A stretch of 64,000 nucleotides of DNA, from assembly GCA_041558875.1 (NCBI GenBank), contig JBFFEL010000004.1, positions 6,980-70,979 of the forward strand, written 5' to 3'. A program made the position numbers and the translations under genes. The DNA comes from Anaerolineales bacterium. GTDB lineage: Bacteria; Chloroflexota; Anaerolineae; Anaerolineales; UBA4823. Below are positions 8,304-46,368 of this stretch, in pieces (the first letter of the stretch is position 1; every line of letters begins with the position of its first letter). Below the pieces are notes generated by a model. It was not told where the DNA came from. It saw only the letters and a program-made list of their open reading frames with translations, and searched no databases.

Positions 8304-8345
8304 TCTCTTTGGATCACCGTCTGATTTTTCCGTGGAGATCTTACG

Positions 8346-9365: not shown

Positions 9366-9401
9366 GCGTAATTTCTAAACTTCTAAACCACCCAAAAACA
9401 G

Positions 9402-25857: not shown

Positions 25858-26871
25858 ATGAATATGACAGACCCAATAATAAAAATTTATAAAGGCTTAG
25901 AAGGCTATAAACAGCTGCTGATAATTCCACATAATGATCCTGATCCTGATGCCATCGCTACAGCGATAGGTTTGCGTTATTTAGTTACTGAAAAGCTTGG
26001 TAATACTGCTCAGATAGGTTATCGCGGCAACATTGGGCGTTCTAAGAACAAGGCACTTGTCCGATATTTAGACCACCCCCTTCACAAACTTGATCAGCAA
26101 GAGATGCGTCAAAATATACCCATAGCTTTGGTTGATACACAACCAGGTGCGGGGAATAATCCATTACCAGAAAACATCCCTGCCACAATTGTTATCGATC
26201 ATCATGAATGGCGAGAAATTTCATCCAAGGCACGGTTTTTTGACATTAGACCTGAAATTGGAGCATCAGCGACAATTTTGACAGAATACCTTCAGATGGC
26301 AGAATTGGATTTTTCTCCTGAACTTGCTACTGCTTTGTTCTATGGGATAAAAACCGACACGATGGGTCTGGGCCGTGGCGCATCCTCCGCTGATGCCGCC
26401 GCTTATTTCTTTTTACAGCCCAAAGTCGATGTTGAAACTTTAGTGCAAATAGAGCGTGCACAGGTTCCGATAACCTATTTCATGAGCCTCGACACGGCAA
26501 TACATGCAGCACGACTGTATGACAATGATCTGGTTATTTCAAATGTAAGAATTCTGAAATGCCCGGATTTAGGTGCAGAGATTGCCGATATACTGTTGCG
26601 TTTGCAGGGTGTAAAATGGTTCATATGTGTGGGGGTATATAAGGATGACTTGATTTTATCTCTCCGGTCCCGCAGCCGGAAAATTGGTGCTGGCAATCTA
26701 GCTAAACAAGTCATCGGGAATCAAGGTGTAGCAGGTGGACACGGGACGATAGCTGGTGGTCAAATCCGAATAAATAATCAAAACCCATACCAATTGTCAA
26801 ACCAAATAACCAAGATAGCCCTTCAGCATTTAAAGGGAGATTCATCTGTGGTTGGAATCCCATTGATTTAG
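25858..26871 (+). CDS. DHH/DHHA1 family phosphoesterase (NrnA-like), paralog 1
   Basis: 337 aa with IIPHNDPDPDAIATA, VIDHHEW and a GGHGTIAGG DHHA1 motif. It is a paralog of 45355..46368, which has the same length. Confidence 0.85.
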   Translation: MNMTDPIIKIYKGLEGYKQLLIIPHNDPDPDAIATAIGLRYLVTEKLGNTAQIGYRGNIGRSKNKALVRYLDHPLHKLDQQEMRQNIPIALVDTQPGAGNNPLPENIPATIVIDHHEWREISSKARFFDIRPEIGASATILTEYLQMAELDFSPELATALFYGIKTDTMGLGRGASSADAAAYFFLQPKVDVETLVQIERAQVPITYFMSLDTAIHAARLYDNDLVISNVRILKCPDLGAEIADILLRLQGVKWFICVGVYKDDLILSLRSRSRKIGAGNLAKQVIGNQGVAGGHGTIAGGQIRINNQNPYQLSNQITKIALQHLKGDSSVVGIPLI

Positions 26872-26881: not shown

Positions 26882-27562
26882 GTGCAAGCAGTATTAATTT
26901 CGCCTTTCGCAGACGAAGCCAACATCCTGCAAGTAATTTTGCAGCAAGCCGGATTCATGGTTCGAGCCACGCACAATTTTGATCAAGCCATTGAATCCTG
27001 GCCAAACAAACCTGCAGATCTTATTCTGATCGTATTGACTGGGGAACATTCTAAATCGTTAACTCAAGTAAAATTGTTACGGGCACATACCGTGGTGCCG
27101 ATTCTACTCATATCCGATTTGCTTCCTGATGACGAACATGTCAATTATCTCGAAGCCGGAGCTGACCTAGTTTTATTCCGGCCATACAGCGTTCGAGCCC
27201 TTTTAGCCCAAATACGCGCCATATTGCGCCGTAGTGCTGGTGTGCCTTTTTTTAGCCTACCTACTCTGACACAGAAAGATGTCATGCTGGATCCTACCGA
27301 CCGAACCGTTCGGGTTGGGGAGCAAGATCCCAAACGTTTGACCCAATTGGAGTTTCGTCTGCTCTACACATTGATGACCCATGTTGGTCAGATTATCCCG
27401 ACTGATAAGATAGTTGAACATGTTTGGGGATATTCAGGCGAAGGCAATCGGGAATTGGTGCGCGGTCTGGTGCAGAGGGTGCGTTCAAAAATCGAAGCTG
27501 AACCCCACAAACCTGAATACATTCTCACAGAAGTCGGTATCGGTTATTATTTCAGCCGCTAG
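26882..27562 (+). CDS. OmpR-family winged-helix regulator with degenerate (pseudo-)receiver domain, paralog 1
   Basis: 226 aa, GTG start with GGAGG. The C-terminal trans_reg_C pattern is LTQLEFRLLYTLM...VWGY...VRGLVQRVRSKIE...GIGYYF. In the receiver, SPFADE replaces the DD pocket, ADLILIVLTG has Val at the phospho-Asp position, and RPYS has Arg at the conserved Lys. Confidence 0.8.
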   Translation: MQAVLISPFADEANILQVILQQAGFMVRATHNFDQAIESWPNKPADLILIVLTGEHSKSLTQVKLLRAHTVVPILLISDLLPDDEHVNYLEAGADLVLFRPYSVRALLAQIRAILRRSAGVPFFSLPTLTQKDVMLDPTDRTVRVGEQDPKRLTQLEFRLLYTLMTHVGQIIPTDKIVEHVWGYSGEGNRELVRGLVQRVRSKIEAEPHKPEYILTEVGIGYYFSR

Positions 27563-27742
27563 GTAATCCCAATGTAGTTATTACTACGTAACAAATCTCG
27601 GGAGCTAGATTGTTTTCTACGAGGGGGAAAACAAGTATATAAAAATTCACACTGGGGGTCAATTTTTAATACAAATCCTCAATACTCATTAGACCAATTT
27701 TGAATACCAACTTAGTAAACTGCGGCCAGAAAGAATACGATC

Positions 27743-27931
27743 ATGATTACAGCAACCTGTCCGGAGTGTAAGCATTTGATTAATCTGATTTCATTGCCAG
27801 AAATCGGCAAACTATTTATGTGCGAGAGCTGCGACACAAAGCTCGAAGTAACCTGGCTGTTCCCAGTAATCTTGGACTATCAAGAGTATGAAAAACAGCT
27901 GGCCAGCGATGAGGACAAGAACCTGAAGTAA
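27743..27931 (+). CDS. LysW-like C4 zinc-ribbon small protein
   Basis: 62 aa with CPEC-x17-CESC, then KLEVTWLFPVILDY and the acidic tail QEYEKQLASDEDKNLK. Confidence 0.55.
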   Translation: MITATCPECKHLINLISLPEIGKLFMCESCDTKLEVTWLFPVILDYQEYEKQLASDEDKNLK

Positions 27932-29787: not shown

Positions 29788-30747
29788 ATGAAACATATTA
29801 AGAAAGCAACCCTAATTCTTGTGGCTCTAGCCATCTCCATAGGTTTGGTGTTAACCAATTCTCGACCAGTCTCTGCTGCTGTGGAAGAACCTCAAAAATG
29901 CACCCGGTGGCACACAGTTAATAAAGGCGAGTATCTGTCTATGATCGCTGAACAATACGAAACAAATTGGTATTCCCTGGTTGAGATCAATCAATTGACG
30001 AATCCAAGCCTCATTTACGTAGGCAACCGGTTGTGTATTTTCCACAGCGATTTCTCAACCAAGCCACTGGTAAATAATCCAATAAGTAGCAACAGTGCCA
30101 GAGTATTTGCTACCAGTGTTAAAGAAGATCAGACAGTGACCCTCCAGGGAAAATATTTAGTTGCGAATTCTCGTTACGACATTTATCTGGGTAAATATAA
30201 GACCGATCCAGCGATCAGAATTCCTGTTGGCTCAATCTCTACGGATAAAAATGGAGCCTTCCAAACGACAGTCACTATCCCTAAGAAGCTGTACGATGTA
30301 TTGAAGATTCGCGTCAGCCTAACCAATCAGCGCGGTGATACGAAATCAAACTGGTTCATCAATACTACCAGTTCAGGAAATGTCGGAGGTATTGGTTCTC
30401 CAGAGTTGAGCATAGCTGTCAAGTCTGTCAAGAAAGGCCAATGGGTAAAGATTGAAACGAATAACCTGCCAGCAAAAGTTTCCTTCAAGGTTTATATGAA
30501 GAGATCCGGAGCAAATGACAGAAAATGGGTTTTAGTTGGAACACTCCGTGATTCCAAGGGTGGCGAGGTTGTGGAATCCTTTGAAATTCCAGAATCAATA
30601 AAAGATCGATCAAAATTGGAGATTATGGCAGTAAACGATGCTCTAGATATGGATGCGGGAGCAAGGTTCGATAACATAACTACTAAGGCGCAAATAATCT
30701 CATCGATTAGACTCGATCAGGATACTGCAGTGATAGGTTTAAGGTGA
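29788..30747 (+). CDS. Secreted LysM-domain protein
   Basis: 319 aa with signal peptide and GGAGGTG SD. HTVNKGEYLSMIAEQYETNWYSLVEINQLTNPSLIYVGNRLCI is a LysM motif. The C-terminal region is beta-rich. Confidence 0.75.
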   Translation: MKHIKKATLILVALAISIGLVLTNSRPVSAAVEEPQKCTRWHTVNKGEYLSMIAEQYETNWYSLVEINQLTNPSLIYVGNRLCIFHSDFSTKPLVNNPISSNSARVFATSVKEDQTVTLQGKYLVANSRYDIYLGKYKTDPAIRIPVGSISTDKNGAFQTTVTIPKKLYDVLKIRVSLTNQRGDTKSNWFINTTSSGNVGGIGSPELSIAVKSVKKGQWVKIETNNLPAKVSFKVYMKRSGANDRKWVLVGTLRDSKGGEVVESFEIPESIKDRSKLEIMAVNDALDMDAGARFDNITTKAQIISSIRLDQDTAVIGLR

Positions 30748-30896: not shown

Positions 30897-33287
30897 GTGC
30901 GCATCGTACTTGAACACATTTGGTCGGATTGGCGATTAAGTCTTGCTGTCACAATATTAATGGTAGCGGTTTTTGGTTTGTTGTGCGCTTGGTTCATGCC
31001 TCGAGGTCCAGTAACAACTTCACAAGCACTGGTTTCAATAGTGTCATCCTTATTCATTGGCATATTGGCTGGTTTTGTTATGGGAACCCGGTGGAGCATG
31101 TTGATCACGCCAGTGGCGTTTATATTTGTATTTGAACTCGCTCGAAATGGAATTAAAGGTCCCACGGTGGACAACATCATCCTCAGCTCCATGTATGGCG
31201 TCCTTGCATTTTCCACGGGTCGCTTATTTCATGGTGTGCTTGTCTTAGCACCGATGATATTAGGTGCCGTTTATGGGGCATGGATCGCATCCAGCGTTGG
31301 AAAAGGTCATATCGTGTCTGTGGGCACCTTCGGTTGGTCAATCACTGGTCTTAGCTCCTTGGCAATCATACTTGTTGTTTTTTTGGTTGCACAACCTGCG
31401 ACTACAAATCCAATAATCAATTCCGGTGGGGAGCCAATCTCTGGCAGTATTGCAGAATTGATCAGTGTCCCAATCGGTGGTCATGAACAGGTACTGATGA
31501 TTAGGGGAAGGAGTGTTGATAATCCGGTTCTTTTATATCTGGCTGGAGGACCTGGTGGTACAGACCTTGGTGCCATGCGTGCAGACGTCACTCTGGAACA
31601 GTATTTCATTGTTGTGACATGGGATCAACGCGGCACCGGTAAGTCTTATGCTGCTCTTGACCCGGTTGAAACGCTGACTTACGAACAAATGGTGTCCGAC
31701 ACGATCGAGGTGACAAATTACCTCCGTGACCGCTTCAATGTAAACAAGATTTACCTTGTAGGTAATTCTTGGGGCTCTATCCTCGGTATACTTGCCGTTC
31801 AACGTCAGCCTGAACTCTTCCACGCTTATGTTGGTACAGGTCAAATGGTCAGCCCAAGGGAAACCGATATCATGTTCTATGAAGATAACCTGAAGTGGGC
31901 TGAACAAACGCACAACGGAAACCTAGTTGATGAGCTGCAACAAATTGGTCTTCCTCCATACGAGAACCTCAAAAATTATGAAACAGCACTTTCCCACGAA
32001 CTCGCCTGGAACCCCTATTCCGGACTCGATACAAGCAAGGAAATGCTATTCAACTTGTTTGTACCCGAAAACTCACTCATGGATCGGATCAACGGGATGC
32101 GAGGTTTGCTCGATACTTTCTCCATCCTTTATCCACAACTACAGGAAATTGACTTTCGGAAGGATGTCCAAAGCATGGACATCCCCATTTATATTGTGAT
32201 TGGCAAGCACGAGGCTCGCGGCCGGGCTGTCTTAGCCAAAGAATGGTTCGAAATGCTTTCAGCTCCGTCAAAAGAGATGATCATTTTCGAACATTCAGGT
32301 CATCGTCCAATATTTGAGGAACCAGCGGAGTTCGCTGCTGTGATGACTCGTATCTTGGAGGACAATAATATCCAATTCTCGAATAATCCAACCCATCCGG
32401 TGTGTTTCGATACTTTTCTTGCTCCTATTGCATTTATGCCAGACAGTGAACGAATTTTGGTTCGCGCTGAATCAGGTGTTCAGATCTTTAATCTAGCAAC
32501 GATGGAGGAAGAATTGTTCCTTGAATCGCCAACAAAACTGAAAAGACCAACTGCGGTTCTGTCATTGAAAGGTGATATGTTAGCCTGGGTACTTGAAGAT
32601 AATTCCATCCAAGTAATCCGGTTATCAGATCAGAGCGTAATTTACACCACACACATCCATTCTGATCCAATCACAAAACTAAGATTTTCTCCGGATGGGT
32701 TGAAACTATACTCAGCCTCACATGATGGTTGGGTGAAGGAATTGAACATTGATGGACAAATAGTAAGCGAATTTCAGCCTTATGGTGGAGAGGTACTCGG
32801 ACTAGGTATTTCCGCAGATGGAGAAACCATTGCTACAATACCTTTCGATGGACCTGTAAAGTTGTGGGATACAGCAAACTATCAAATGCTGACAGATTTG
32901 GGGGGATCGGGTGGATATGATACCTCAGATGTGGCTTTTTCCAGCAACGGTCAATTTATCGCCGCAGATCTAGCAACCGGCCTGTCTGCCTGGGATATCA
33001 GTGATCATTCATTACTTTGGAATGGCATCAACAGCAAGGCATTCGCATTTTCGCCACAAGAAAACCTCTTGGCTTATTCAGATATTAGTAAGAATCATGA
33101 CATTATTCTTAGGTCTCTAGAAGACAAACAAATACTAAATACATTGATCGGCCATCAAGGTCCAGTTTGGGAGCTGATATTCTCACCTGATAGTCAATTG
33201 CTGGCATCCACGGATGGAAATGAATTGCGCATCTGGCGCGTGGATGGTGGCGAGCTCTTGTACATTGGAAAAAGCAGCTGTCCGTAA
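30897..33287 (+). CDS. Membrane-anchored alpha/beta hydrolase (proline iminopeptidase-like) fused to WD40 repeats
   Basis: 796 aa with about 5 N-terminal TM helices. The hydrolase core has LYLAGGPGG, nucleophile elbow GNSWGS and a late FEHSGH. The C-terminus has WD40-like repeats (e.g. GHQGPVWELIFSPDSQLLASTDGNELRIWRV). Confidence 0.75.
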   Translation: MRIVLEHIWSDWRLSLAVTILMVAVFGLLCAWFMPRGPVTTSQALVSIVSSLFIGILAGFVMGTRWSMLITPVAFIFVFELARNGIKGPTVDNIILSSMYGVLAFSTGRLFHGVLVLAPMILGAVYGAWIASSVGKGHIVSVGTFGWSITGLSSLAIILVVFLVAQPATTNPIINSGGEPISGSIAELISVPIGGHEQVLMIRGRSVDNPVLLYLAGGPGGTDLGAMRADVTLEQYFIVVTWDQRGTGKSYAALDPVETLTYEQMVSDTIEVTNYLRDRFNVNKIYLVGNSWGSILGILAVQRQPELFHAYVGTGQMVSPRETDIMFYEDNLKWAEQTHNGNLVDELQQIGLPPYENLKNYETALSHELAWNPYSGLDTSKEMLFNLFVPENSLMDRINGMRGLLDTFSILYPQLQEIDFRKDVQSMDIPIYIVIGKHEARGRAVLAKEWFEMLSAPSKEMIIFEHSGHRPIFEEPAEFAAVMTRILEDNNIQFSNNPTHPVCFDTFLAPIAFMPDSERILVRAESGVQIFNLATMEEELFLESPTKLKRPTAVLSLKGDMLAWVLEDNSIQVIRLSDQSVIYTTHIHSDPITKLRFSPDGLKLYSASHDGWVKELNIDGQIVSEFQPYGGEVLGLGISADGETIATIPFDGPVKLWDTANYQMLTDLGGSGGYDTSDVAFSSNGQFIAADLATGLSAWDISDHSLLWNGINSKAFAFSPQENLLAYSDISKNHDIILRSLEDKQILNTLIGHQGPVWELIFSPDSQLLASTDGNELRIWRVDGGELLYIGKSSCP

Positions 33288-34651: not shown

Positions 34652-34867
34652 ACTTGTCCATTGAAAAATTAGCGATTGCTTGATGATTTTGCATGATGAT
34701 GGAATAACATGGTTCCCATGGAGAGGGATTTATTGTATAAAAATTCATATGCAAGGAAATAACTTAATACTAGTTTGATATTTTAGAAAGACAGTAATTC
34801 CACATATAAGTATTAAACTTGTACAAATCCAATCTGAAATTCGATAAATATTTGGGTCAATAAAATT

Positions 34868-35392
34868 TTGGAATCAAAGGTACCTTATTTCGAAAAAATG
34901 TTAAAACAAAAATCGATCGCTCGTAAGCAATTTTCCCCTCAAAAGTTAACCTATATCACCGCCAAAGGTCTCGGAAAACTTGTAGATGAATTGGATTACT
35001 TGCGCACCTCAAAACGAATGGAAATGTCCCAGCATTTGCATGACACAATGGGCGAAGCTGAAGATAGCGAATATTTGATTGCCCTCCAGGAACAAGCCTT
35101 TATCGAGGGGCGCATCCATGAATTAGAAGGGCTTTTGGCAAATTATCGGATCATCGAGCCAGGCCATAATAGTGGCAATGTTCAACTAGGCAGTACTGTT
35201 GTGATCAGAGAAAATGGCAAGGACACGGAAACCTATACAATTGTAGGTACTGCAGAAGCAAATCCCAGGGAAGGCTTAATTTCGGATGAGTCACCCCTTG
35301 GAACGGCCCTGCTTGACAGCAAAGTTGGCGATGATATAGAAATCAATGTGCCAGGGGGGGTATTAAAATTCCGGATTGTGGCGGTTCAATAA
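34868..35392 (+). CDS. GreA-like transcript-cleavage-factor homolog, paralog 1 (N-terminal extension, start uncertain)
   Basis: 174 aa. It aligns with GreA throughout: LTYITAKGLGKLVDELDYLRT..., ...SEYLIALQEQAFIEGRIHELEGLL, and C-terminal LISDESPLGTALLDSKVGDDIEINVPGG. Confidence 0.8.
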   Translation: MESKVPYFEKMLKQKSIARKQFSPQKLTYITAKGLGKLVDELDYLRTSKRMEMSQHLHDTMGEAEDSEYLIALQEQAFIEGRIHELEGLLANYRIIEPGHNSGNVQLGSTVVIRENGKDTETYTIVGTAEANPREGLISDESPLGTALLDSKVGDDIEINVPGGVLKFRIVAVQ

Positions 35393-35455: not shown

Positions 35456-35647
35456 ATGAAATTTGCACACTGCCCTGCATGCAATATGATCATTCAACTC
35501 CCGCAAAAAATAAAAGTGCGTGAACTGATCAACTGCCCTCATTGTAATTCCATGCTTGAGTTGGCAAGCCAATATCCCCCTACTTTAGATTGGGCTGAGG
35601 ATCCTCTTGTGCATCCTTCACGCAGGGGCATGAAACGATTATTTTGA
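35456..35647 (+). CDS. LysW-like C4 zinc-ribbon small protein (basic tail)
   Basis: 63 aa with CPAC-x17-CPHC, then MLELASQYPPTLDWAEDP. The C-terminus ...SRRGMKRLF is basic. Confidence 0.5.
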   Translation: MKFAHCPACNMIIQLPQKIKVRELINCPHCNSMLELASQYPPTLDWAEDPLVHPSRRGMKRLF

Positions 35648-35673: not shown

Positions 35674-36918
35674 ATGGAAATTTACCAATCAACCAAAGCC
35701 AGAATTCTTCCACCCCCTCTGGAGAGAAAACAAGATTCCTGGAGAATCGCAATAATTGCCAATCTGATTGATGGATTTGAACGCAATGCCGACGATCCTC
35801 TAGATGCTGGTGCAGAATTCGATCGCTTGCAAACAATTGAAGCTATCGCAGATGCTCTAGAAAGAGACGGGCACAATGTGTTTTTTTTGGAGGCAAACAG
35901 CACTCTTCCTGAAGCCTTGATGGACGTACGTCCAGATATTTGCTTCAACATCGCTGAAGGGATTCGCGGTGATGGTCGCGAAGCCCAGGTACCAGCTTTA
36001 TGCGAATTGTTGGGTATCCCGTATACCGCCTCCCAGGTGGTTGCTAACGCAATTTCCTTGAACAAGACAATGACCAAGCGCATCTGGCAGCAACAGGGAC
36101 TACCAACGGCACCATATTACGAATTCAACTCGCTGGAAGAAGTTGCTCACGCTGATTTTCGCTTTCCTTTGTTTGCTAAACCATCCCGCGAGGGCACCGG
36201 TATGGGTATCAACACCAGTTCAATAATAAGTAATTATGATCAGCTAATTGAACGCGTTGATTGGCTGCTGAGCAATTACCGGCAGCCAGTGTTGGTGGAG
36301 GAATTCCTACCCGGGCGCGAGTTCACCGTTGGTTTTATCGGAAATCGCGGTCATCCGACCTTCAGGAGGCGTCCAGAATTGTATGATAACGATGGTTATC
36401 ACTGGTTTCCCGTCTTAGAGATCGATACTCTGTCCAGCGTGAGTCCTACCATATACGGACACGATGCCAAGGAGTTAGATATCGGTTCGGAAGGCGCTCC
36501 TAGTTATCTCTGCCCAGCAGATATACCTGAATCCTTACGCGCCAGGCTCATTGACCTGACTCGTCGGGCTGCTGAAGCTTTAGAAGTTCGGGATGTATCC
36601 CGGGTCGATTTCCGGGTGGGGGCTGATGGTGAACCCTATCTGCTGGAAATTAACACTCTCCCGGGACTGAACCCGATCTTGAGTGATTTATGCATCATGG
36701 CTGCCGCTGAAGGGATGTCACATCAAACACTGATTACAGAAATCCTATACCTGGCTGCAGAACGATATCACCTTGGAAATATTCCGGTACGTAGCAACTT
36801 TCAACCAGTAAATTCTCGAAATCATTTTGAAGTGGTTCAACAAAGGATCTCAATAAATAATTCAGACTTACCTTTACATCATGAAAGCGCCAGTAAATAC
36901 GAGCTACCAGATTTTTAA
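35674..36918 (+). CDS. ATP-grasp ligase, D-Ala-D-Ala-ligase-like family
   Basis: 414 aa with GREAQVPALCELLGIPYTAS, LNKTMTKRIW, FPLFAKPSREGTGMGI, VLVEEFLPGREFTVG and RVDFRV...PYLLEINTLPGL. Confidence 0.8.
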   Translation: MEIYQSTKARILPPPLERKQDSWRIAIIANLIDGFERNADDPLDAGAEFDRLQTIEAIADALERDGHNVFFLEANSTLPEALMDVRPDICFNIAEGIRGDGREAQVPALCELLGIPYTASQVVANAISLNKTMTKRIWQQQGLPTAPYYEFNSLEEVAHADFRFPLFAKPSREGTGMGINTSSIISNYDQLIERVDWLLSNYRQPVLVEEFLPGREFTVGFIGNRGHPTFRRRPELYDNDGYHWFPVLEIDTLSSVSPTIYGHDAKELDIGSEGAPSYLCPADIPESLRARLIDLTRRAAEALEVRDVSRVDFRVGADGEPYLLEINTLPGLNPILSDLCIMAAAEGMSHQTLITEILYLAAERYHLGNIPVRSNFQPVNSRNHFEVVQQRISINNSDLPLHHESASKYELPDF

Positions 36919-36950: not shown

Positions 36951-37184
36951 ATGAAATCCCAGATAAAAACAACCCATAAGGATTCGATTGTTAAGTGCCT
37001 GTTATGTAACAGTATGATAAATCTTGGTTTTAATTACAAAGTCGGTAAATTTATCACCTGCAAGAACTGTGAGATGGTATATGAAATCATTAATATCGAT
37101 CCGGTAATGATTGACTGGCCATATCACGATGATGATTACATCGATAATGATGATCTTTACGATTACGATTACGATTATGATTGA
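36951..37184 (+). CDS. LysW-like C4 zinc-ribbon small protein with Asp/Tyr-rich tail
   Basis: 77 aa with AGGAGA SD. It has CLLC-x17-CKNC, then YEIINIDPVMIDW, then the tail PYHDDDYIDNDDLYDYDYDYD. Confidence 0.6.
   Translation: MKSQIKTTHKDSIVKCLLCNSMINLGFNYKVGKFITCKNCEMVYEIINIDPVMIDWPYHDDDYIDNDDLYDYDYDYD
37161..37181 (+). repeat. Hexanucleotide microsatellite (GATTAC/GATTAT x3.5) encoding the DYDYDYD C-terminus
   Basis: The sequence is gattac gattac gattat gat, immediately before the TGA at 37182-37184. Confidence 0.8.
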
Positions 37185-37397: not shown

Positions 37398-38203
37398 ATG
37401 TTAGATGAATATTTTCATGCAATTCCCTGGCTAAATCAGATCCTTCGAATTTCCCCCTATGTCACCCTCGCCTGGGTAAGATCCGCTCCCTCTAATCGGA
37501 TTATTAATCGATTCAATAGTCATTCGGAATTAACCATTGGTGGAGAACAGCTCCTTTCGGAACGCATACGGACAATCAGGGTTTTGATTGCTGGTTCTAA
37601 AAGCCCGATTGCGTTTGTAACGGCAGCTATATTAATCCTGAGCATGTTTTTGGATTCAGTTACATTGATCTGGATGGTTGGATCGTTCAGCGCAGTCTTT
37701 GGTTTAGGAGCCCGCCCATTAATCAGAGATTACCTCCATGGCATTGGTTATATCTTTGAGAACGAATTCACAGCAGGAGAAAAGATTCAGCTTCCAGGCC
37801 TGTATCCCGTCGAAGGAATGGTAGAAGCCAATTGTCTTTGAGCGACAACGTTCAGGGCACCTTCAGAGAGATGTATACTGTGCCAAAAGGGGAAATTCGT
37901 ACAGTCCGAAACTTCAGTCGGGGTAATTACTCGTTAGCGAATATAACACTAAAATTCTCGGCTAACGATTTGAGCCGGGCCTTGCCTCTCTTGGAAGATT
38001 TCGTACGCGAGGCTGTGAATTTGTTGCCTAATCTCCTTAAACCTTGGCAGGTTATCAGCGAATCTGGGATCATTGGGCAGGAAACAGAGCTAACCTTGGA
38101 TGCAAAAGCGAAATTTGGCAAGGCTTGTGAAATGCGTCCAAATTTGATGGCATTGATCCAAGAACAATTATTGGAGAGGAACATTTCATTAGCCAATTTA
38201 TAG
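37398..38203 (+). pseudogene. Small MscS-like mechanosensitive channel gene split by a frameshift near 37832-37841
   Basis: ORF 37398..37841 ends ...FTAGEKIQLPGLYPVEGMVEANCL*, which is pore helix plus the start of the beta domain. The overlapping ORF 37832..38203, in another frame, continues LSLSDNVQGTFREMYTVPKGEIRTVRNFSRG... with the MscS beta/C-terminal domain. A sequencing error has not been excluded. Confidence 0.5.
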
Positions 38204-39183
38204 TGAGTTGTATGATCCGTTCAATTGTGTTTACCGAAGCGGGTGAGACGCAACCCATAATTGTGGAAAAAATCCCGGAGATATTGAAAAATAAGATAGA
38301 TTTCTTCTGGGTAGACGTTGTTGCTGAACCAGATGAAAACTGTAAAAACCTGTTTCAAGGTGTTTTTAATTTCCACTCACTAGCAATTGATGATGCTCTC
38401 CAAGAAACGCATGTTCCAAAAGTTGATGGTTGGAGCACATACCTCTATATGGTATTGCTCACTGCAAGAAAAGCATCTCAAGATTCCTTTGAGATTCTCA
38501 CACCAGAGTTGGATGTATTCTTAGGCTCAAATTATTTAGTGACATACCACAAAGAGGCAATTGCCAGTGTAGATGCGATTTGGGCTCTTTGCCTGCGAGA
38601 TCAAAGATACATGTCAAAAGGACCAGGATTTATTCTCTATCAAATTTCAGATGAGATTGTTAGCAACACAATGTCAGTAATTGAGGATGCAGAAAATCTA
38701 TTAGATCAGATCGAAGATGTGATCTTTACCAATCCACAACCAGCGATCTTAGAACAAATCTTTTCAGTCAAACGTACATTGCTAGGATTACGAAGTTTCC
38801 TGCTTCTCCAAAGGGAGATTTTTAATAAGCTGGCACGTGGTGATTTTGAACTAATCCCAGACCATGACAGAGTTTACTTCCGAGATGCATACGACCATAT
38901 GGTCCGGGTGCAAGAAATCAATGAAAGTTTACGTGATCTTATCAATAGTGTATTAGAAATTTATCTTTCTGTGGTAAACAATCGGATGAATGAGATCATG
39001 AAGTTGCTAACCATTATTGCTACGATTTTTATCCCACTTTCTTTCTTCACGGGAATTTATGGAATGAATTTTACCTTTATGCCGGAGCTGCAATGGCGAT
39101 GGGGTTATTTCTTTTTTCTAGGTTTTATTGGGCTGATTCTCATTGGTATGTTGATCTTTTTTAGGCGAAAACAATGGATATGA
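38203..39183 (+). CDS. corA: CorA-family magnesium/cobalt transporter
   Basis: 326 aa with two C-terminal TM helices and a YGMNF (GMN) motif. An alternative ATG lies at 38212. Confidence 0.85.
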   Translation: MSCMIRSIVFTEAGETQPIIVEKIPEILKNKIDFFWVDVVAEPDENCKNLFQGVFNFHSLAIDDALQETHVPKVDGWSTYLYMVLLTARKASQDSFEILTPELDVFLGSNYLVTYHKEAIASVDAIWALCLRDQRYMSKGPGFILYQISDEIVSNTMSVIEDAENLLDQIEDVIFTNPQPAILEQIFSVKRTLLGLRSFLLLQREIFNKLARGDFELIPDHDRVYFRDAYDHMVRVQEINESLRDLINSVLEIYLSVVNNRMNEIMKLLTIIATIFIPLSFFTGIYGMNFTFMPELQWRWGYFFFLGFIGLILIGMLIFFRRKQWI

Positions 39184-39256
39184 TGTTTGATGATATCTGT
39201 CCACCCATATAAAAAAAACGAGGCAATAATCATCAATCCCTAATTTAGGCGCATAG

Positions 39257-40429
39257 ATGGTAGAAATTTTTGAAAAGAATACAAATATAAGTTAGCCAGA
39301 GATCTTTTGTTTTACATTGTCGTACTTTTAATAGTTTCTGGATTGACATGTACCTACTACCTCCTAATGCGGTCCTTGGTAATTGCAGCGCTTTTGGCAT
39401 ACCTACTTTATCCAGGAGTAACTTGGATATCTGATCATACACATCTAAACAAAGATATGTAGTTCCTGTGGTCTATATCGTATTCGTGGTTGTTTTGGTT
39501 GTTATCATTATCTAACTTTCACCAATAATTTTTCAGCAGGCAAAGATACTCAGCTTTAGGCTGCAAACTATTCCTAATCAAATAGGCAAATTCGAGACAA
39601 ATGTTGAGATTCTGTTTGGTTTTGAGTTACCCATATTAGCTTTTTGGGATGACATTCAATTTGGCGCATACCAACTGCTAAAACCCGAGAGGGTCTTTCA
39701 AATAATTAGGATTACAACCACGAACATAGTTTGGTTGGTCGTTATATTCGCCACAAGCTTCTATTTACTTAGAGATTGGGAACATTTGTGTGTGGGATTG
39801 GTTTATAAGATTAGCTCCGGCGGAATATGAACCTGATATCCTTCACCTTTACCAGGAGATTAAATCTGTATGGCAGATATTTCTTCGAGGGCAACTCCTG
39901 ATTATGTTCCTGGTAGGTTTACTTTCAGGGTTGGTTGCAGCTGTGATTGGACTTCCAGGCGCTTCCATATTAGGGATTCTTGCGGGAACCCTGGCACTAA
40001 TCCCAACACATGGGCCGGCGATAGCAACTATGATTAACGCTATCGTTGCCTGAACACAGGTATCTACCCACCTATCTTGATTTTTCCAATGGAGTGATAG
40101 TTTTTTTGTCAATCTCTATTTTTCAGTTGGTTCAGATAGTTGAAGGAGTTTGGCTTTCAACACAAATCATGGAGAGAAAGCTGCAATTACATCCAGGTCT
40201 TGTACTGGTTGCTATTATTAATACTTTGATAAGTGTAAGTGCGATGATTGCTTTAATGATCACACCACTGATTGGTTCCTTAGAGATAGTTCTTCGATAT
40301 GTTATTAGAAGAAAACGGGCTGGATTAGCACCTTGGTCAAAGGAAGAATCACTTCAATGGGTTGATGATGATACCTTACCTGATATTCCAGTTATTACCG
40401 AAATGTTTTTTTACACGAAAACGACTTAG
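39257..40429 (+). pseudogene. Decayed AI-2E (PerM/YhhT) family transporter gene with several frameshifts and stops
   Basis: The pieces are in different frames. They read MVEIFEKNTNIS*, LARDLLFYIVVLL...AALLAYLLYPGVTW...*, VPVVYIVFVVVLVVIII*, LSPIIFQQAK...FYLLRDWEHL, WDWFIRLAPAEYEP...LIPTHGPAIATMINAIVA*, and ...IFQLVQIVEGVWLSTQIMERKLQLHPGLVLVAI.... Together they trace one AI-2E-like protein. Confidence 0.55.
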
Positions 40430-40686
40430 TATGCGAGAAGAGTACAGAAACTGACCCTAACTAGGTATATCAACGAATGCAGTATTATTTGAATCTACGG
40501 AATTCGTAAGATAGGAGAAACTTAATATCGATAGTAAAAACTTGAATAAACTCGTGCTCGCAAACACAGGCTGCAGTTACAATCCTATCATTCAATGTAA
40601 AATCATCAAACCACTTCACAAAGATCAAAAATTCTAAATATCAATAATATAACTATTTTTTTATCCCAGGAAATTTTTTAGTTGGG

Positions 40687-40998
40687 TTATCTTTCATCAT
40701 GATCAATAAAATGATTTTTCTTGTCACGACCTAATAATTTTGTTCCATCCCAAAAAAATGCAAAAGCGATAAAAATCAAAATAACAAATGTTCGCATTGT
40801 TTGTGATATTTGGTAATATGGTCTAATAAGATTTTGTTCAGCATACAATAAGGTGAAACCAAGTAAGAATATTCCAAAAAAATATATCAATATACTTTGC
40901 CATTTGCCTTGTTTTAAATTTCCCATTCCAGCAAATAGAATGAAAAATAGATTTGTAAGAAAAGAATCTTTTTTCAACTGAATCCCTCTTAGTTTCAA
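40687..40998 (-). CDS. Small membrane protein (about 3 TM), unknown function
   Basis: 103 aa. Its start overlaps the stop of the RimK-like gene by 4 nt, which suggests co-translation. Confidence 0.45.
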   Translation of the reverse strand: MKLRGIQLKKDSFLTNLFFILFAGMGNLKQGKWQSILIYFFGIFLLGFTLLYAEQNLIRPYYQISQTMRTFVILIFIAFAFFWDGTKLLGRDKKNHFIDHDER

Positions 40999-41924
40999 AA
41001 GGAGTGCAAATACATTTTTTCTTTTGAAGGAATCCCTTCTAACCGAACTTGTACATACTGATAAATTTCCATCGGCACGTTAATTCCGGTTGCAAATTCA
41101 AACCCCTCAAATCCTGGGGCGCAATTGATTTCACAAACTTTATAATTATCGCCATCAAACAGCAGGTCCACACCGGCAATATCCAATCCTAACGCCCTGG
41201 CCGATTCGACAGCCAACCACTCAACAGCTGGAACTAACTCGAAATTCGATACCTTCCCCCCTCTTGAGTAATTTGCTTTGTACATACCTTCTCTTGCGAC
41301 TCTCAACATGCCGCCAATCGCCCTCCCTCCCACAACAATCACGCGAATGTCTTTACCTCGACTTGATGAAATGAATTCTTGAATAATCACATTTGCAGTT
41401 GATCCTTTGGATATCTCAATCAGCTCACCCAAATCCTCCATTTGTCCTCGATTCTCGCATAGGAAAATCCCTCTTCCACGAGAACCGGACACAAGTTTCA
41501 CAATCACGGGATAAGTAAATTCCGCATCCACTTTCTCTACATTAAAAGGAAATTTTGCCAGCATTGTTTTTGGAATAGGAATATTATTCCCAGCCAGACA
41601 TTGAATAGTTGCCAGTTTATCTCTGCCAACTTCAATACTCCGGCTGGGATTCAAGGTGAATATTCCCCCTTGCTCAAGATACCGTAATGCAGATAATGAG
41701 AAGTAGGTTGCGCCTGATCCTAGTCTAGGAATCAGGCAGTCAACATTATTACTGGTCTGTCCTTCATACGGCCTGTCATGGCTTGTATCGCTTGGTACGA
41801 TTAAATCAAAATCCTCTATTGCAAGAAAACTGAAATCAATCCCTGCATCAACTGCTTCTTCTCGAAATCGACGATTTTCGTAACTTTCAATATTTTTGTC
41901 TTTATCTAAGAGCCAAATTTTCAT
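40995..41924 (-). CDS. RimK-family ATP-grasp alpha-L-glutamate ligase-like protein
   Basis: 309 aa, collinear by eye with E. coli RimK. Shared segments are MKIWLL, IPRLGSGATYFSLSALRYLE, RDKLATIQCL, PVIVKLVSGSRGRGIF, IIQEFI...GKDIRVIVVG, ANYSRGG and AGVDLL...VCEINCAPGFEG. Confidence 0.85.
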   Translation of the reverse strand: MKIWLLDKDKNIESYENRRFREEAVDAGIDFSFLAIEDFDLIVPSDTSHDRPYEGQTSNNVDCLIPRLGSGATYFSLSALRYLEQGGIFTLNPSRSIEVGRDKLATIQCLAGNNIPIPKTMLAKFPFNVEKVDAEFTYPVIVKLVSGSRGRGIFLCENRGQMEDLGELIEISKGSTANVIIQEFISSSRGKDIRVIVVGGRAIGGMLRVAREGMYKANYSRGGKVSNFELVPAVEWLAVESARALGLDIAGVDLLFDGDNYKVCEINCAPGFEGFEFATGINVPMEIYQYVQVRLEGIPSKEKMYLHSF

Positions 41925-41932
41925 TTCCGGGT

Positions 41933-42400
41933 CTAAGAAACATTCAGAATGTGTACTGGATAAACTCCCCCTGGTGCCCTGATCAGCACATCATCACCAA
42001 CTTTGTGACCGATCAGGGCACTCCCTAAAGGAGATGCAAAAGAAATCAAACCCCGAACAGGCGCGGCTTCTACCGGCCCAACAATTGTATAGCTCACCGG
42101 TTCCTCACCATTTTCAGAAATCATAACCTTTGAACCGATTTCGATCACTCCACCATTTTCTTGATTCTCAATGATGATCGGGTTTGAAAGTAAGATCTCC
42201 AAATCTTGAATGCGGCCCTCAATGAATGCCTGTTGTTCTTTTGCCATGGCAAATTCGGGATCCGTATCACCATCGTTCTCATTACCACCATTTGATTCCC
42301 TCAGCAGCGCGGCAATTTCCTGGCGTTTCACATTCCGTAAGTATTCAAGCTCACCAAGTAATTTTTCATAACCGGATGAAGTTAAATATGTTGGTGGCAT
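41933..42400 (-). CDS. GreA-like transcript-cleavage-factor homolog, paralog 2
   Basis: 155 aa with LTSSGYEKLLGELEYLRNVKRQEIAALL, ...PEFAMAKEQQAFIEGRIQDLEILLSN and C-terminal LISFASPLGSALIGHKVGDDVLIRAPGG. The gene ends 8 nt upstream of the RimK-like gene. Confidence 0.8.
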   Translation of the reverse strand: MPPTYLTSSGYEKLLGELEYLRNVKRQEIAALLRESNGGNENDGDTDPEFAMAKEQQAFIEGRIQDLEILLSNPIIIENQENGGVIEIGSKVMISENGEEPVSYTIVGPVEAAPVRGLISFASPLGSALIGHKVGDDVLIRAPGGVYPVHILNVS

Positions 42401-42484
42401 TTCATCAACTCCTTAACGCTAAATTTCCTGATATTTGTTAAAAACAAGGGAGATACTGACCATTAAATCTTGTTTTACGAAAGG

Positions 42485-42892
42485 TTAGTTTAAGTATTCA
42501 TCCAGATGATCTTCAAAGGTATCTTCGTCACCAAAATAGTAATCAAAGCCCCCATCGTATGGCCAGTCTAGCTCGAGAGGGATCAAGGAGACAATTTCCA
42601 ATTCCGCATCACAACCAGAACACAACACTTTACTACCAACCTTCATTTGCGATGATCCAATCTGAACCATATCCTTACATAACGGGCACCTACCATTACT
42701 CGCTTTTTTTACTCGTTCTCTGCCATTTGAATCAAAATGTTCATCGTAATATATCCAATCCAATTCAATCGGATTGGTGTTGACAACTTCTAGAAGTGCT
42801 TCACAAGATGGACAGATAGCTCGTTCAAGAAACTTAACTTTTTTTCCTAGTTCTATACTCTCTTCGCATATCGGACATTGCGCTCTTATCAT
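42485..42892 (-). CDS. Tandem double LysW-like zinc-ribbon protein
   Basis: 135 aa. Module 1 is CPIC-x17-CPSC EALLEVVNTNPIELDWIYYDEH. Module 2 is CPLC-x18-CSGC DAELEIVSLIPLELDWPYDGGFDYYFGDEDTFEDHLDEYLN. Confidence 0.6.
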   Translation of the reverse strand: MIRAQCPICEESIELGKKVKFLERAICPSCEALLEVVNTNPIELDWIYYDEHFDSNGRERVKKASNGRCPLCKDMVQIGSSQMKVGSKVLCSGCDAELEIVSLIPLELDWPYDGGFDYYFGDEDTFEDHLDEYLN

Positions 42893-42950
42893 CGCTCATC
42901 CTTTCATGGATATCTTTCTCCGAAGGAAACAAACAATCGAAGTATGGGCT

Positions 42951-43178
42951 TTATATGCCTTTCCAGTCTTTATCCCAGAATTCGAATTCATCGAACGCAT
43001 ATCCACTTTCGTCTGGGACATATATTAGATCCAACACAATAGGGTCAAGGTTGATAATCTCTACCTGTTCATCACAGATTGAACAAAGTATATATTGGCC
43101 AATCTTTGGGTTTTCCCCAATAGATATTTTCTCTCCACAGGAAGGACATCGCGACATTCGTTTCTTAATAGATTTCAT
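42951..43178 (-). CDS. LysW-like C4 zinc-ribbon small protein
   Basis: 75 aa with CPSC-x17-CSIC DEQVEIINLDPIVLDLIYVPDESGYAFDEFEFWDKDWKGI. Confidence 0.6.
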   Translation of the reverse strand: MKSIKKRMSRCPSCGEKISIGENPKIGQYILCSICDEQVEIINLDPIVLDLIYVPDESGYAFDEFEFWDKDWKGI

Positions 43179-43210
43179 AGTTAATACTCCTACGAGTAAT
43201 ACGACTGGGG

Positions 43211-43402
43211 CTACTCGATTAAAAGCTTAATGGATTGATCAGGATTAACCGAATTATCCTCAACCAAATCTAGAGTGAGTGGATATAACCAAGTTATTTC
43301 GAAATTGTTGTGGCAATGGGGGCAGGAGATTCGACTATTAATGTATGGTGCTTCGTCTGTGATTTCAAACTCTTTCAGGCAAGAGGGGCAGTTTGTTACC
43401 AT
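43211..43402 (-). CDS. LysW-like C4 zinc-ribbon small protein ending in Glu
   Basis: 63 aa with CPSC-x17-CPHC HNNFEITWLYPLTLDLVEDNSVNPDQSIKLLIE. It is the only member with a C-terminal Glu, as in LysW and ribosomal protein S6. Confidence 0.6.
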   Translation of the reverse strand: MVTNCPSCLKEFEITDEAPYINSRISCPHCHNNFEITWLYPLTLDLVEDNSVNPDQSIKLLIE

Positions 43403-43551
43403 AAAACTCGCGCATTCAACACATTTAGTTTCATAGAATATAGCAACAACCTGTTTTATTTTCGTTGAAAAAATATCCCATTAATGTATAAAATCTCGTT
43501 TCCACATATTAATATTTATACCGATTACACAAACCAATTCAACCCAAATAC

Positions 43552-43582
43552 AAAATAAAAAAAGCCTCTCCGTCAGGAGAGG
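43552..43582 (-). terminator. Rho-independent terminator after the regulator gene 43606..44301
   Basis: The minus-strand RNA is CCUCUCC-UGAC-GGAGAGG followed by CUUUUUUUAUUUUG, 23 nt after the stop. Confidence 0.7.
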
Positions 43583-43605: not shown

Positions 43606-44301
43606 TTATTCGCTACGATTGAAATAATACCCAATTCCTGATTCCGTGAGAATGTATCTTGGGTTTCTTGGTTCAGGTTCAACTTTCGATCGCAATCGCT
43701 GAACAAGTCCACGAACCAGATCCCGATTACCTTCACCAGAATAACCCCATACATGCTCTACGATCTGCTCCGTAGGCAAGATCTGTCCAACATTGGTCAT
43801 CAATGTGTATAGCAAGCGAAATTCTAGTTGAGTCAAATGTTTTTCCGGATGATTCCCCACTTTCACCGTACGCATTGATGGATCTAACACAACATCATGT
43901 TGGGATAACGTGGGCAAACTGAAAAATGGAATACCAGCGCTTCTTCTTAATAAAGATTTTATTTGTGCATGAAGGAAGCGAATTCCATATGGCCGTTGGA
44001 TTACCAGGTCCGCTCCAGCCTCCAACAATTCAACCTGTATTCCTTCATTTATAGGATCACTAATTATGCAGATTGGAATGACTGTGTGCAATCGAAAGTC
44101 TTCAATATACTTTATTGCTTTGGATATATCTTCTGGAAGTGTGATAAGTACAAAATCGGCTGGTTTTTCAGGCCAAGCATCAATTGCTTGCTCGAGGTTG
44201 TGAACAGTCCTTACATAAAATCCTGCTCTTTGCAGGAGAAGACTCAGGACAGAGGCTTCTTCGATATGAGGGGAGAATAACAATGCTTGCATATTGATCA
44301 T
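43606..44301 (-). CDS. OmpR-family winged-helix regulator with degenerate (pseudo-)receiver domain, paralog 2
   Basis: 231 aa, collinear with 26882..27562. Shared segments are SAG[VI]PFFSLPTL[TS]Q, LTQLEFRLLYTLMT, VEHVWGYSGEGNR.LVRGLVQR.RSK and GIGYYF. The receiver is degenerate: FSPHIEE, ADFVLITLP (Thr at the phospho-Asp position) and QRPYG. Confidence 0.8.
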   Translation of the reverse strand: MINMQALLFSPHIEEASVLSLLLQRAGFYVRTVHNLEQAIDAWPEKPADFVLITLPEDISKAIKYIEDFRLHTVIPICIISDPINEGIQVELLEAGADLVIQRPYGIRFLHAQIKSLLRRSAGIPFFSLPTLSQHDVVLDPSMRTVKVGNHPEKHLTQLEFRLLYTLMTNVGQILPTEQIVEHVWGYSGEGNRDLVRGLVQRLRSKVEPEPRNPRYILTESGIGYYFNRSE

Positions 44302-45354: not shown

Positions 45355-46368
45355 TCAAATCATTTGCTTAAAATGGACTTCAGATTTTCCTTTCAAATGG
45401 ATCAAAGCCGTTTTCTCCAATTCTACTGCCAGTTGTTCTGGATCATCCTCCTTTCCTAATCTAACATGCCCGGCCGCCATATTTCCATGACCACCGGCTG
45501 TACCTTTATGACCAATGATTTTGGAAATCAACATGCCAGCACCGATTTTTTTGTTCCGAGATCGCATGGAAAGGATCAATTCATCGACAAAAACCCCCAT
45601 ACAGAGTACCCACTGGATACCCCTCAACCTCATGAAGAAATCAGCTATCTCGGCGCAAAGGTCTGGATAAGGAAGATTGCCTAAATAAGCAATAACGACA
45701 TCATCATCGAAAATCCGACCAGCATGAATCGCATTGTCGATACTCTGGAAATAAGTTATAGGCACTTGAGCCTGCTCGATTTGTACTAAAGCATGGACAT
45801 CTATTAATGGTTGCAGGTAGAAGTATGCCTCCACATCAGCTGGACTGGCATGACGGCTGAGACCCATAGTATCCGTTTTGATGCCGAAGAAAAGGGCTGT
45901 AGCTAGCTGAGGAGTTGGATTGATCCCGGCTTCTAGCAAATACTCAGTCAGGATAGTGGAAGTGGCTCCTAATTCAGGACGAATATCCACAAAATCACCT
46001 GATTTAGCAGCACTTTGCGAGATGTGATGATCTATTACGATATCAGCCATCCGGTCAGCAGGTAGAGAGTTGTTTCCAGTGCTAGGCTGAGTATCGACTA
46101 AGGCGATCTTAGATTCTGTATGCCAGTCGGAGGGTTGAATAAGACGGAGCGGTTTATCCAAATACTGCACCAGCGCCTTGTTCTCAGCACGCCCGATATG
46201 GCCTTTGTAAATAATTTTTGCATCTACATGAAAGACTATATTGAGGAGATTTTTCAATCCAACCGCCGAGCCAATTGCATCTGGATCAGGATCGTTGTGG
46301 GGAATGATCAGGATGTTAGTTTGGTCAGCCAATACCTTGGCAAGTGCATCAAGATGCTTATCAGACAT
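45355..46368 (-). CDS. DHH/DHHA1 family phosphoesterase (NrnA-like), paralog 2
   Basis: 337 aa with IIPHNDPDPDAIGSA, VIDHHIS and GGHGNMAAG. It is collinear with 25858..26871. Confidence 0.85.
   Translation of the reverse strand: MSDKHLDALAKVLADQTNILIIPHNDPDPDAIGSAVGLKNLLNIVFHVDAKIIYKGHIGRAENKALVQYLDKPLRLIQPSDWHTESKIALVDTQPSTGNNSLPADRMADIVIDHHISQSAAKSGDFVDIRPELGATSTILTEYLLEAGINPTPQLATALFFGIKTDTMGLSRHASPADVEAYFYLQPLIDVHALVQIEQAQVPITYFQSIDNAIHAGRIFDDDVVIAYLGNLPYPDLCAEIADFFMRLRGIQWVLCMGVFVDELILSMRSRNKKIGAGMLISKIIGHKGTAGGHGNMAAGHVRLGKEDDPEQLAVELEKTALIHLKGKSEVHFKQMI

Follow-up and report, generated by a model that had tools for sequence, protein, structure and literature searches.

The 64,000-nucleotide (nt) stretch analysed here, called the window (forward strand of contig JBFFEL010000004.1, positions 6,980 to 70,979, assembly GCA_041558875.1 of an Anaerolineales bacterium), carries on its minus strand a compact unit of six genes, module A: the genes for three LysW-like zinc ribbons (ZnA1, ZnA2 and ZnA3), a Gre-factor paralogue (GreA_A), a RimK-subfamily ATP-grasp ligase and the small protein Mem103. 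A paralogous module B, noticed through comparison with the 96% identical relative L001 (Chloroflexota metagenome-assembled genome CP070785.1), lies on the plus strand at 25.8-37.2 kb. The combination of LysW-like genes, a Gre paralogue and an ATP-grasp ligase is present twice in the window, with ligases of two unrelated ATP-grasp families, and the order regulator, LysW-like genes and GreA_A is kept in all nine lineages in which members of the GreA_A clade were followed.

The six open reading frames of module A, with gaps of 32, 58, 84 and 8 nt and a 4-nt overlap, had been described in an earlier note made from the sequence alone, and all of these values were exact when the open reading frames were called again; the overlap is that of the Mem103 start with the RimK stop codon. 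The terminator which the note had placed between the module and the upstream regulator was also found, as a G+C-rich hairpin followed by a T run (CCTCTCC-TGAC-GGAGAGG, 43582-43565) directly behind the RR_A stop codon. As proposed, the genes sit close together as one unit that has a control region of its own upstream, marked by a conserved 36-nt inverted repeat. No convincing sigma-70 promoter could be assigned in the conserved region upstream of ZnA1. The hydropathy profile of Mem103 shows two peaks, as expected for two membrane spans, and the protein gave no family match in the profile search.

Pfam and structure alignments bear out the proposed relationship of the zinc ribbons to LysW, which puts them in the same fold family as the known partners of RimK/LysX-type ligases. 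On the Pfam family Zn_ribbon_LysW (PF21344, cut-off 27) ZnA2 scored 30.2 bits, ZnA3 52.8 bits with two stretches, ZnB1 27.0 bits and ZnB2 34.9 bits; ZnA1 (17.9 bits) and ZnB3 (20.4 bits) are sub-threshold. With a local LysW-like profile, whose seed contained both of these proteins, ZnA1 scored 75.8 bits and the pair ZnA1 and ZnB3 is placed at 76-78 bits. The profile also included a Thermus LysW sequence, which agrees with the 3wwl_A alignment. The two ZnA3 modules each gave an alignment to a LysW structure (5k2m_E, 3wwl_A), and the four-cysteine zinc-ribbon domain of the LysW/ArgW carriers is present in the window LysW-like proteins, which have no signal peptide and no membrane anchor. On the equivalog model TIGR01206 (lysW) the three zinc ribbons of module A scored 14.6, 30.3 and 40.3 bits, all below the cut-off of 53.2. 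In the local profile search the window showed six LysW-like genes, which contain seven modules, besides two Gre paralogues; further LysW-like or Gre genes were not found in it.

Searched against 1.84 billion cluster representatives (50% identity clusters), the profile found 3,017 relatives, 650 of them at E <= 1e-10, in one-, two- and three-module forms; the long matches are generic multi-CxxC repeat proteins. Among the 141 top representatives shorter than 200 amino acids (aa) a single one ends in W[GAS]E, 108 carry [LIVM]D[WYLF] and 57 have strongly acidic tails. Judged by sequence, the LysW-like proteins are a family of about 650 clusters distinct from true LysW.

The earlier note had counted four acidic-tailed modules in module A. 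The tails are acidic (4 of 18 residues in ZnA1, 7 of 25 in ZnA2 and 9 of 26 in ZnA3, with an aromatic content that also varies), but only three modules have free tails, because the N-terminal module of ZnA3 runs into an internal linker. ZnA1 ends in Glu, ZnA2 in Ile and ZnA3 in Asn, and the terminal residues of all six window proteins are E, I, N, K, F and D. Within the tails, sequence motifs are conserved: EYEYWEKYW in ZnA2, LDWPYDGG...DDYxN in ZnA3 and a poly-Asp/Tyr stretch in ZnB3, whose poly-acidic/Tyr tail is of the DYDYDYD type (DDDYIDNDDLYDYDYDYD). The idea that the terminal Glu of ZnA1 tracks the presence of RimK was discarded, since it applies to a single lineage only and ZnA1 of the related locus L096 ends in Asp.

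The GreA-like identity of the fourth gene product was correctly recognised, the 155-aa protein carrying GreA_GreB_N and GreA_GreB domains. Pfam and an AlphaFold model (predicted local distance difference test score 86.8) give the coiled coil and the C-terminal globular domain of GreA, and the model has TM-scores of 0.80-0.84 to GreA and to RNA polymerase-bound Gfh1. The tip loop reads GGNENDGDTDPEF against the canonical GDLSENAEY, with a two-residue insertion, and forms in the model a 10-residue loop at residues 38-47. The canonical tip GDxxENxEY with its two catalytic acidic residues is lacking, the tip being still acidic, and on TIGR01462 the protein is below the equivalog level (122.9 bits, cut-off 139). 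The GreA_A clade is tight, with 155-aa proteins of 63-98% identity, a tip consensus GGNExDGDxDPEF and named members labelled Anaerolineales or Chloroflexota; the canonical tip is retained in proteins with 51-57% identity to GreA_A, among them one labelled Anaerolineae. As modelled, GreA_A is a paralogue of GreA in which the coiled-coil tip is remodelled and enlarged.

The RimK-family identity of the 309-aa ligase likewise stands, with 226.8 bits on TIGR00768 (rimK_fam, cut-off 143.4), which is the subfamily level, 149.5 bits on Pfam RimK and 47.4 bits on Rimk_N. The alignment to E. coli RimK (5zct) scored 163.7 bits over the full length including the pre-ATP-grasp domain, and those to LysX/ArgX-type ligase structures 62-93 bits; on these alignments the window ligase is of the RimK subfamily and closer to E. 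coli RimK than to LysX. It is below the equivalog cut-offs of RimK (NF007764, 169 bits vs 331), LysX_arch (153 bits vs 275.6), MptN and CofF. A scan of a genome collection with the window RimK returned one locus, that of the 96%-identical relative L001. No rpsF gene was recognised among the annotated parts of the window.

The ligase of module B is of a different type. It matches PF07478 with 101 bits and is most similar to D-Ala-D-Ala ligases, but stays below every NCBIfam Ddl cut-off (best 171.9 bits vs 243 on NF002378, the equivalogs far below). It is conserved in the related loci L005-L007, L010, L011 and L092, and by its distribution this Ddl-like enzyme is the more constant ligase partner and RimK the accessory one. 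Module B is interleaved with envelope-type genes encoding Ig-like, LysM, SIMPL and lipoprotein products.

Features of modules A and B, in window coordinates
Feature	Position	Strand	Description
DHH_B	25858..26871	+	DHH/DHHA1 phosphoesterase of module B
RR_B	26882..27562	+	pseudo-receiver OmpR-family regulator, 64% identical to RR_A
Inverted repeat, copy 2	27635..27672	+	upstream of ZnB1
ZnB1	27743..27931	+	62 aa, LysW-like zinc ribbon
Ig-like protein	27970-29319		between ZnB1 and GreA_B; membrane-anchored, with N_BRCA1_IG Ig-like domain
LysM protein	29788-30747		between ZnB1 and GreA_B; position kept in L005-L007
Hydrolase fusion	30897-33287		between ZnB1 and GreA_B; 796-aa alpha/beta-hydrolase-WD40 fusion
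Inverted repeat, copy 3	34735..34770	+	upstream of GreA_B
GreA_B	34868..35392	+	second Gre paralogue, 50% identical to GreA_A; shortened tip GEAEDSEY
ZnB2	35456..35647	+	63 aa, LysW-like zinc ribbon
Ddl-like ATP-grasp ligase	35674..36918	+	414 aa, LysW-like genes on both flanks
ZnB3	36951..37184	+	77 aa, LysW-like zinc ribbon
Mem103	40687..40998	-	103 aa, small basic protein (isoelectric point 9.85); conserved GMGNxK motif
RimK-subfamily ATP-grasp ligase	40995..41924	-	309 aa, intact
GreA_A	41933..42400	-	155 aa, Gre-factor paralogue
ZnA3	42485..42892	-	135 aa, two LysW-like modules; acidic-aromatic C-terminal tail ...DEDTFEDHLDEYLN
ZnA2	42951..43178	-	75 aa, LysW-like zinc ribbon; conserved aromatic-acidic tail DEFEFWDKDWKGI
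ZnA1	43211..43402	-	63 aa, LysW-like zinc ribbon, CxxC...CxxC then WLYPLTLD; mildly acidic tail, terminal Glu
Inverted repeat, copy 1	43486..43521	-, palindromic	GTATAAA-N22-TTTTATAC, about 85 nt upstream of ZnA1
Terminator-like hairpin and T run	43555..43582	-	3' of RR_A gene
RR_A	43606..44301	-	OmpR-family regulator with pseudo-receiver
DHH_A	45355..46368	-	DHH/DHHA1 phosphoesterase, 55% identical to DHH_B

Related loci were found through contigs encoding members of the GreA_A clade (L001, L005-7, L008-9, L010-11, L092, L093, L094-95 and L096); with the window they make nine lineages, the window and eight further ones, and L004 is close to L096. Identity over GreA_A and ZnA3 is 57-79%. ZnA3 is present in nine of nine lineages, and orthologues of ZnA1 are found in L001, L005, L008, L010, L092, L093 and L096. 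In most lineages Mem103 lies downstream and parts of module B are nearby; Mem103 orthologues follow GreA_A or a RimK remnant in L005-L011, L092, L094 and L095, and L004 has no Mem103 downstream. As a control served 80 canonical greA loci with a total of 623 kb, which came from a metagenome scan with the GreA_A-clade alignment, whose patterns were too general, and which have at most 51% identity to GreA_A. No open reading frame in them matched the LysW-like profile. Since the order is kept in nine lineages and was met in 0 of 80 control loci, the association of Gre and LysW-like genes is, in the genomes compared, conserved and specific to the GreA_A clade. The position of a Gre gene next to LysW-like genes, to which the earlier note had drawn attention as foreign to known RimK/LysW systems, is a real linkage, and literature searches found no published description of a LysW-like/Gre association. 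The synteny that the note proposed to survey in relatives holds for Gre and the LysW-like genes in all nine lineages but not for RimK, which is intact in only two.

Both modules are preceded by a regulator of the OmpR family. RR_A has a winged-helix Trans_reg_C output domain (75.2 bits) and a receiver which is below the cut-off of Response_reg (26.2 bits vs 30.2); in the alignment to KdpE, Thr stands at the position of the phospho-acceptor Asp (in DLIILDLGLP) and Arg at that of the conserved Lys. RR_A is found upstream of the zinc-ribbon genes in all loci. Each DHH phosphoesterase is linked to a pseudo-receiver regulator, in module B with a gap of 10 nt, and the DHH-RR_B pair is conserved in L005-L007. 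This linkage hints at a nucleotide signal, cyclic di-AMP, pApA or pAp, that may feed the regulators.

The inverted repeat has the consensus GTATAWA-N22-TWWATAC, followed by about 60 conserved bases. Three sites are observed in the window against 0.01 expected by chance, and one match was found in the 623 kb of control loci. It is present in every module-A locus that spans this intergenic region, upstream of ZnA1 or, in L094 and L095 where ZnA1 is missing, upstream of ZnA2. No Rfam family matched, and a known RNA element was rejected on this ground; as the stem positions are also invariant in the alignment of the loci, the repeat is read as a DNA operator. It looks like a candidate operator that would define a small regulon. 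The repeat-bearing units encode six zinc ribbons (seven modules, with mostly acidic-aromatic tails), two Gre paralogues, two ATP-grasp ligases and one membrane protein, and two of the three repeat-bearing transcription units lie directly downstream of a pseudo-receiver regulator. We infer that RR_A and RR_B, encoded by the adjacent genes, are the obvious candidates for binding the repeat.

Outside the GreA_A clade, LysW-like genes were examined in three loci, none of which has a Gre gene within 8 kb (L097, L099 and L101). In L097 a LysW-like gene adjoins a Ddl-like ligase 54% identical to that of the window. L101, from a lineage that is more distant and richer in G+C, has at 7106-8258 a pseudo-receiver regulator gene (48% identity to RR_A/RR_B) and behind it a LysW-like gene whose product has a long acidic tail, and the pair adjoins rpoD and dnaG; the pairing of regulator and LysW-like gene therefore extends beyond the Gre-containing clade. 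L099 carries YkuD, LysW-like and GT87 genes, and no ligase.

The reading that we tentatively prefer, with a probability of roughly 0.4, is that Anaerolineales possess a co-regulated gene set in which LysW-fold proteins, once ATP-grasp ligases have modified their acidic tails, act with the Gre paralogues on RNA polymerase, and RimK is an accessory component. In such a scheme the RR regulators would bind the inverted repeat and switch the gene set on or off, and the ATP-grasp ligases would add amino acids to carboxylates of the zinc-ribbon tails, in parallel to RimK acting on the S6 tail and LysX acting on LysW. For RimK the added residue would be alpha-linked Glu, and its most plausible acceptor would be ZnA1 with its terminal Glu. 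Together with Gre paralogues docked in the secondary channel of RNA polymerase, the zinc ribbons would then modulate transcription. The predicted modification of the tails by the ligases and the predicted output on RNA polymerase are plausible. The assignment of the zinc ribbons as substrates of the neighbouring ligases is strengthened by the LysW fold, by the duplication of the module and by L093, in which a Ddl-like ligase 63% identical to that of the window occupies the RimK slot directly after GreA_A. Further points in favour of the preferred reading are the synteny in nine lineages with its negative control loci, the shared inverted repeat, and the pairing of LysW-like genes outside the clade with a Ddl-like ligase (L097) or a pseudo-receiver regulator (L101). 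A more elaborate version, rather unlikely, would have the zinc ribbons as regulatory proteins whose acidic-aromatic tails are written by the RimK-type and Ddl-like ligases as a 'tail code' that is read on RNA polymerase via the Gre paralogues, under the pseudo-receiver regulators.

A number of findings weigh against this preferred reading. They include the fate of RimK in the related loci, where its presence was scored by tblastn with the window protein. An intact gene is found in the window and in L004 only (83% identity), and the ratio of nonsynonymous to synonymous substitution rates of 0.05 between them implies that RimK has been under purifying selection. The L096 gene, 96% identical to that of L004, has lost 19 residues in frame and is frameshifted by another deletion; L010 retains residues 1-117 and the last 38 only; L094 and L095 retain residues from about 184/205 to 304 only, with frameshifts in L095; L092 has a 25-residue trace; and in L005 and L008 tblastn detected no trace of RimK. 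In L001 a 3.9-kb deletion (window 37655-41559) removes RimK residues 121-309, Mem103, CorA and decayed genes, and at the junction (8351-8364) the aligned blocks overlap by 14 nt. The lesions are scattered on a midpoint-rooted neighbour-joining tree of GreA_A and ZnA3 and differ in kind, which implies at least five or six separate inactivations of RimK, in lineages that kept the zinc-ribbon and Gre genes intact; as these genes persist where RimK is lost, the core appears to work without it. Most of the related loci are metagenomic contigs and some gene lesions could be assembly errors, but this is unlikely as a general explanation because the lesions are numerous and varied. In favour of the preferred reading are the purifying selection on RimK and the RimK slot, which is occupied, by an intact gene or a remnant, on both sides of the tree. 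By this reconstruction RimK has been in the operon since the common ancestor of the examined lineages and is dispensable to the zinc-ribbon/Gre/regulator core. Its recurrent independent decay amounts to a natural experiment which separates the core (zinc ribbons, Gre paralogue and regulator) from the accessory parts.

The other points of this kind concern substrates and neighbours. A RimK homologue 65% identical to the window enzyme occurs in loci without a LysW-like or Gre gene, and homologues of about 60% identity are found in archaea, Actinomycetota and Spirochaetota; the lack of such neighbours and the wide taxonomic spread argue for a more general substrate. LysW and ArgW end in EDWGE, whose terminal Glu is the attachment site onto which LysX and ArgX ligate (PMC10433800). 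This EDWGE/terminal-Glu acceptor motif is absent from the window LysW-like proteins and their orthologues, the terminal residue varies among orthologues and the ZnB2 tail is basic. Among the top 150 representatives of the family no LysW-like module is fused to a Gre, ATP-grasp or regulator domain, and in two of the three outgroup loci (L099 and L101) no ligase lies within 8 kb of the LysW-like gene. The substrate-plus-ligase assignment is weakened in particular by the repeated loss of RimK, its affinity to RimK proper, the homologue without LysW-like genes and the missing acceptor motif.

Two further observations were made on these loci. In L005 ZnA2 is a pseudogene (7265-7483) which has lost the Cys ligands and contains an internal stop, and in L008 it is absent (7220-7542). 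As neither locus has a trace of RimK, it is weakly suggestive that ZnA2 and RimK may have been lost together, probably in a single event, since L005 and L008 are sister lineages. Further left, L001 joins window 6581-11044 across a gap of 100 N, and strains or assemblies differ in arrangement.

The same findings favour a second explanation, the main rival, which we regard as possible but doubtful: the zinc ribbons may act without covalent modification, as acidic-tail adaptors or decoys that bind regulators, Gre or RNA polymerase, and RimK may be a passenger with its usual substrate, be it S6, free poly-alpha-glutamate or another general acceptor. The retention of zinc-ribbon and Gre genes after repeated RimK loss, a ligase nearer to E. 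coli RimK than to LysX, the near RimK homologue without a LysW-like neighbour and the LysW-like loci without a nearby ligase in L101 and L099 are all in line with it. So is the conservation of tail motifs (EYEYWEKYW in ZnA2, DDYxN in ZnA3) together with a terminal residue that is not an acceptor-type Glu. It has more difficulty with the embedding of two different ATP-grasp families among LysW-like genes, with the replacement of RimK by the Ddl-like ligase in L093 and with the recurrence of the pair of LysW-like and Ddl-like genes outside the clade; a random passenger is also hard to reconcile with the ancestral place of RimK in the operon and its junctions of 8 and 4 nt.

The resemblance of the Ddl-like ligase to D-Ala-D-Ala ligases also allows a role in the cell envelope, with ligases that would serve wall remodelling by producing amino acids or dipeptides or by attaching them, LysW-like proteins as their carriers or chaperones, and Gre and the regulators controlling expression only. 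The LysM, Ig-like membrane-anchored, SIMPL and lipoprotein genes within module B point in this direction, and in the outgroups LysW-like genes adjoin genes for a YkuD L,D-transpeptidase, CBM9 and GT87. We nevertheless consider an envelope function improbable: the ligase is below every Ddl cut-off, the LysW-like proteins have neither signal peptides nor membrane anchors, no other wall-precursor enzymes are present, and the two dedicated Gre paralogues would be left unexplained.

A genuine amino-group carrier pathway, of the kind in which LysW or ArgW serves to make lysine, arginine or a secondary metabolite, would account for the LysW fold and for ligases of the RimK/LysX superfamily. The LysW/ArgW and LysX/ArgX systems of Thermus, Sulfolobus, Thermococcus and haloarchaea indeed share with the window set a PF21344 four-cysteine protein, an acidic C-terminal extension and an adjoining RimK-superfamily ligase. 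The C-termini without EDWGE or the terminal Glu acceptor indicate that the canonical LysW mechanism does not apply. GSWGR, the C-terminal LysX/ArgX motif that recognises EDWGE (PMC10433800), is absent from both the RimK-like and the Ddl-like ligase as read from their translations, and the TIGR01206 and LysX scores are well short of their cut-offs. No LysZ/Y/J/K-type enzymes (AA_kinase, semialdehyde dehydrogenase, class III aminotransferase or M20 deacylase) are encoded by the called genes of L005-L011 and L092-L095 or by the annotated parts of the window at 24-46 kb, the rest of the genome not having been searched. The window set further differs from the known systems in having several paralogous carriers, including two-module proteins, and in its linkage to Gre paralogues, pseudo-receiver regulators and a Ddl-like ligase. 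A carrier pathway is on these grounds very improbable. That the adjacency has no functional meaning, GreA_A being the housekeeping GreA with unrelated neighbours, is hardly credible, as the metagenome scan did return only canonical greA loci but the order is conserved in nine lineages against 0 of 80 controls, the module is duplicated and shares its upstream element, and the remodelled tip is unlike that of the canonical-tip GreA proteins labelled Anaerolineae.

Returning to the preferred reading of ligase-modified tails acting with Gre factors, its parts resemble several known systems. Tubulin tyrosine ligase and its TTLL relatives are ATP-grasp-fold enzymes that attach Tyr or Glu to C-terminal tails which are acidic and rich in aromatic residues, and thereby tune partner binding; the likeness is one of logic only, as these enzymes are eukaryotic with unrelated substrates and the Pfam TTL match is negligible (E = 0.059). 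Atypical OmpR-family response regulators with pseudo-receiver domains are known, and those of the window have the same winged-helix output and receiver without phospho-acceptor Asp; they differ in being paired with DHH phosphoesterases and LysW-like genes and in a downstream element that is palindromic rather than a direct repeat. The RimK-like ligase has full-length similarity to the S6 L-glutamate ligase RimK of E. coli, an enzyme that extends an acidic C-terminal protein tail with Glu (PMC10375531). In contrast to RimK proper it is below the equivalog cut-off, lies inside a LysW-like/Gre operon and is repeatedly lost in relatives. Gfh1 of Thermus and Rv3788 of Mycobacterium share with GreA_A the GreA fold, an altered but acidic tip and the status of a lineage-specific paralogue, and the GreA_A model superposes on RNA polymerase-bound Gfh1 (PMC4598747). 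GreA_A differs in its tip, which has two inserted residues and a conserved DGD, and the window has two such paralogues, each embedded with LysW-like and ATP-grasp genes. We know of no LysW-like or ATP-grasp gene context for Gfh1.

The pairing of a carrier or tail substrate with an ATP-grasp ligase is known; what appears to be new is its occurrence without a biosynthetic pathway and its apparent coupling to Gre paralogues, pseudo-receiver regulators and a shared operator. LysW-type carriers have so far been known only as covalent handles in amino-acid biosynthesis, and RimK essentially for S6. Here the same fold and ligase superfamily are found without the biosynthetic enzymes across a bacterial order. 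If the proposed coupling is true, modification of tails by ATP-grasp ligases would extend to the control of transcription, and a large uncharacterised family of acidic-tail zinc ribbons would gain a function; if the 'tail code' holds as well, it would be a previously undescribed bacterial transcription control built from carrier parts of amino-acid biosynthesis.

A known anti-phage defence system was also considered and rejected, as PADLOC gave only one marginal zinc-ribbon match (E = 8.5e-4), to a methyltransferase model.

The G+C content of the region 24000-46000 of the window, 0.38-0.44, is lower than on either flank (about 0.50). This region coincides with both modules and the genes between them, and is possibly an island acquired long ago or a stretch of distinct composition. 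Between the modules genes are decayed (37398-38203 and 39307-40429), including an MscS-like gene split into two overlapping open reading frames (37398-37841 and 37832-38203) and an AI-2E/PerM-type transporter of which only fragments are present. Cation transport genes recur between the modules or beside them, with CorA in the window (38203-39183, plus strand) and in L010 (9405-10376) and a P-type ATPase in L092 (6152-8689); the poly-acidic tails could bind divalent cations.

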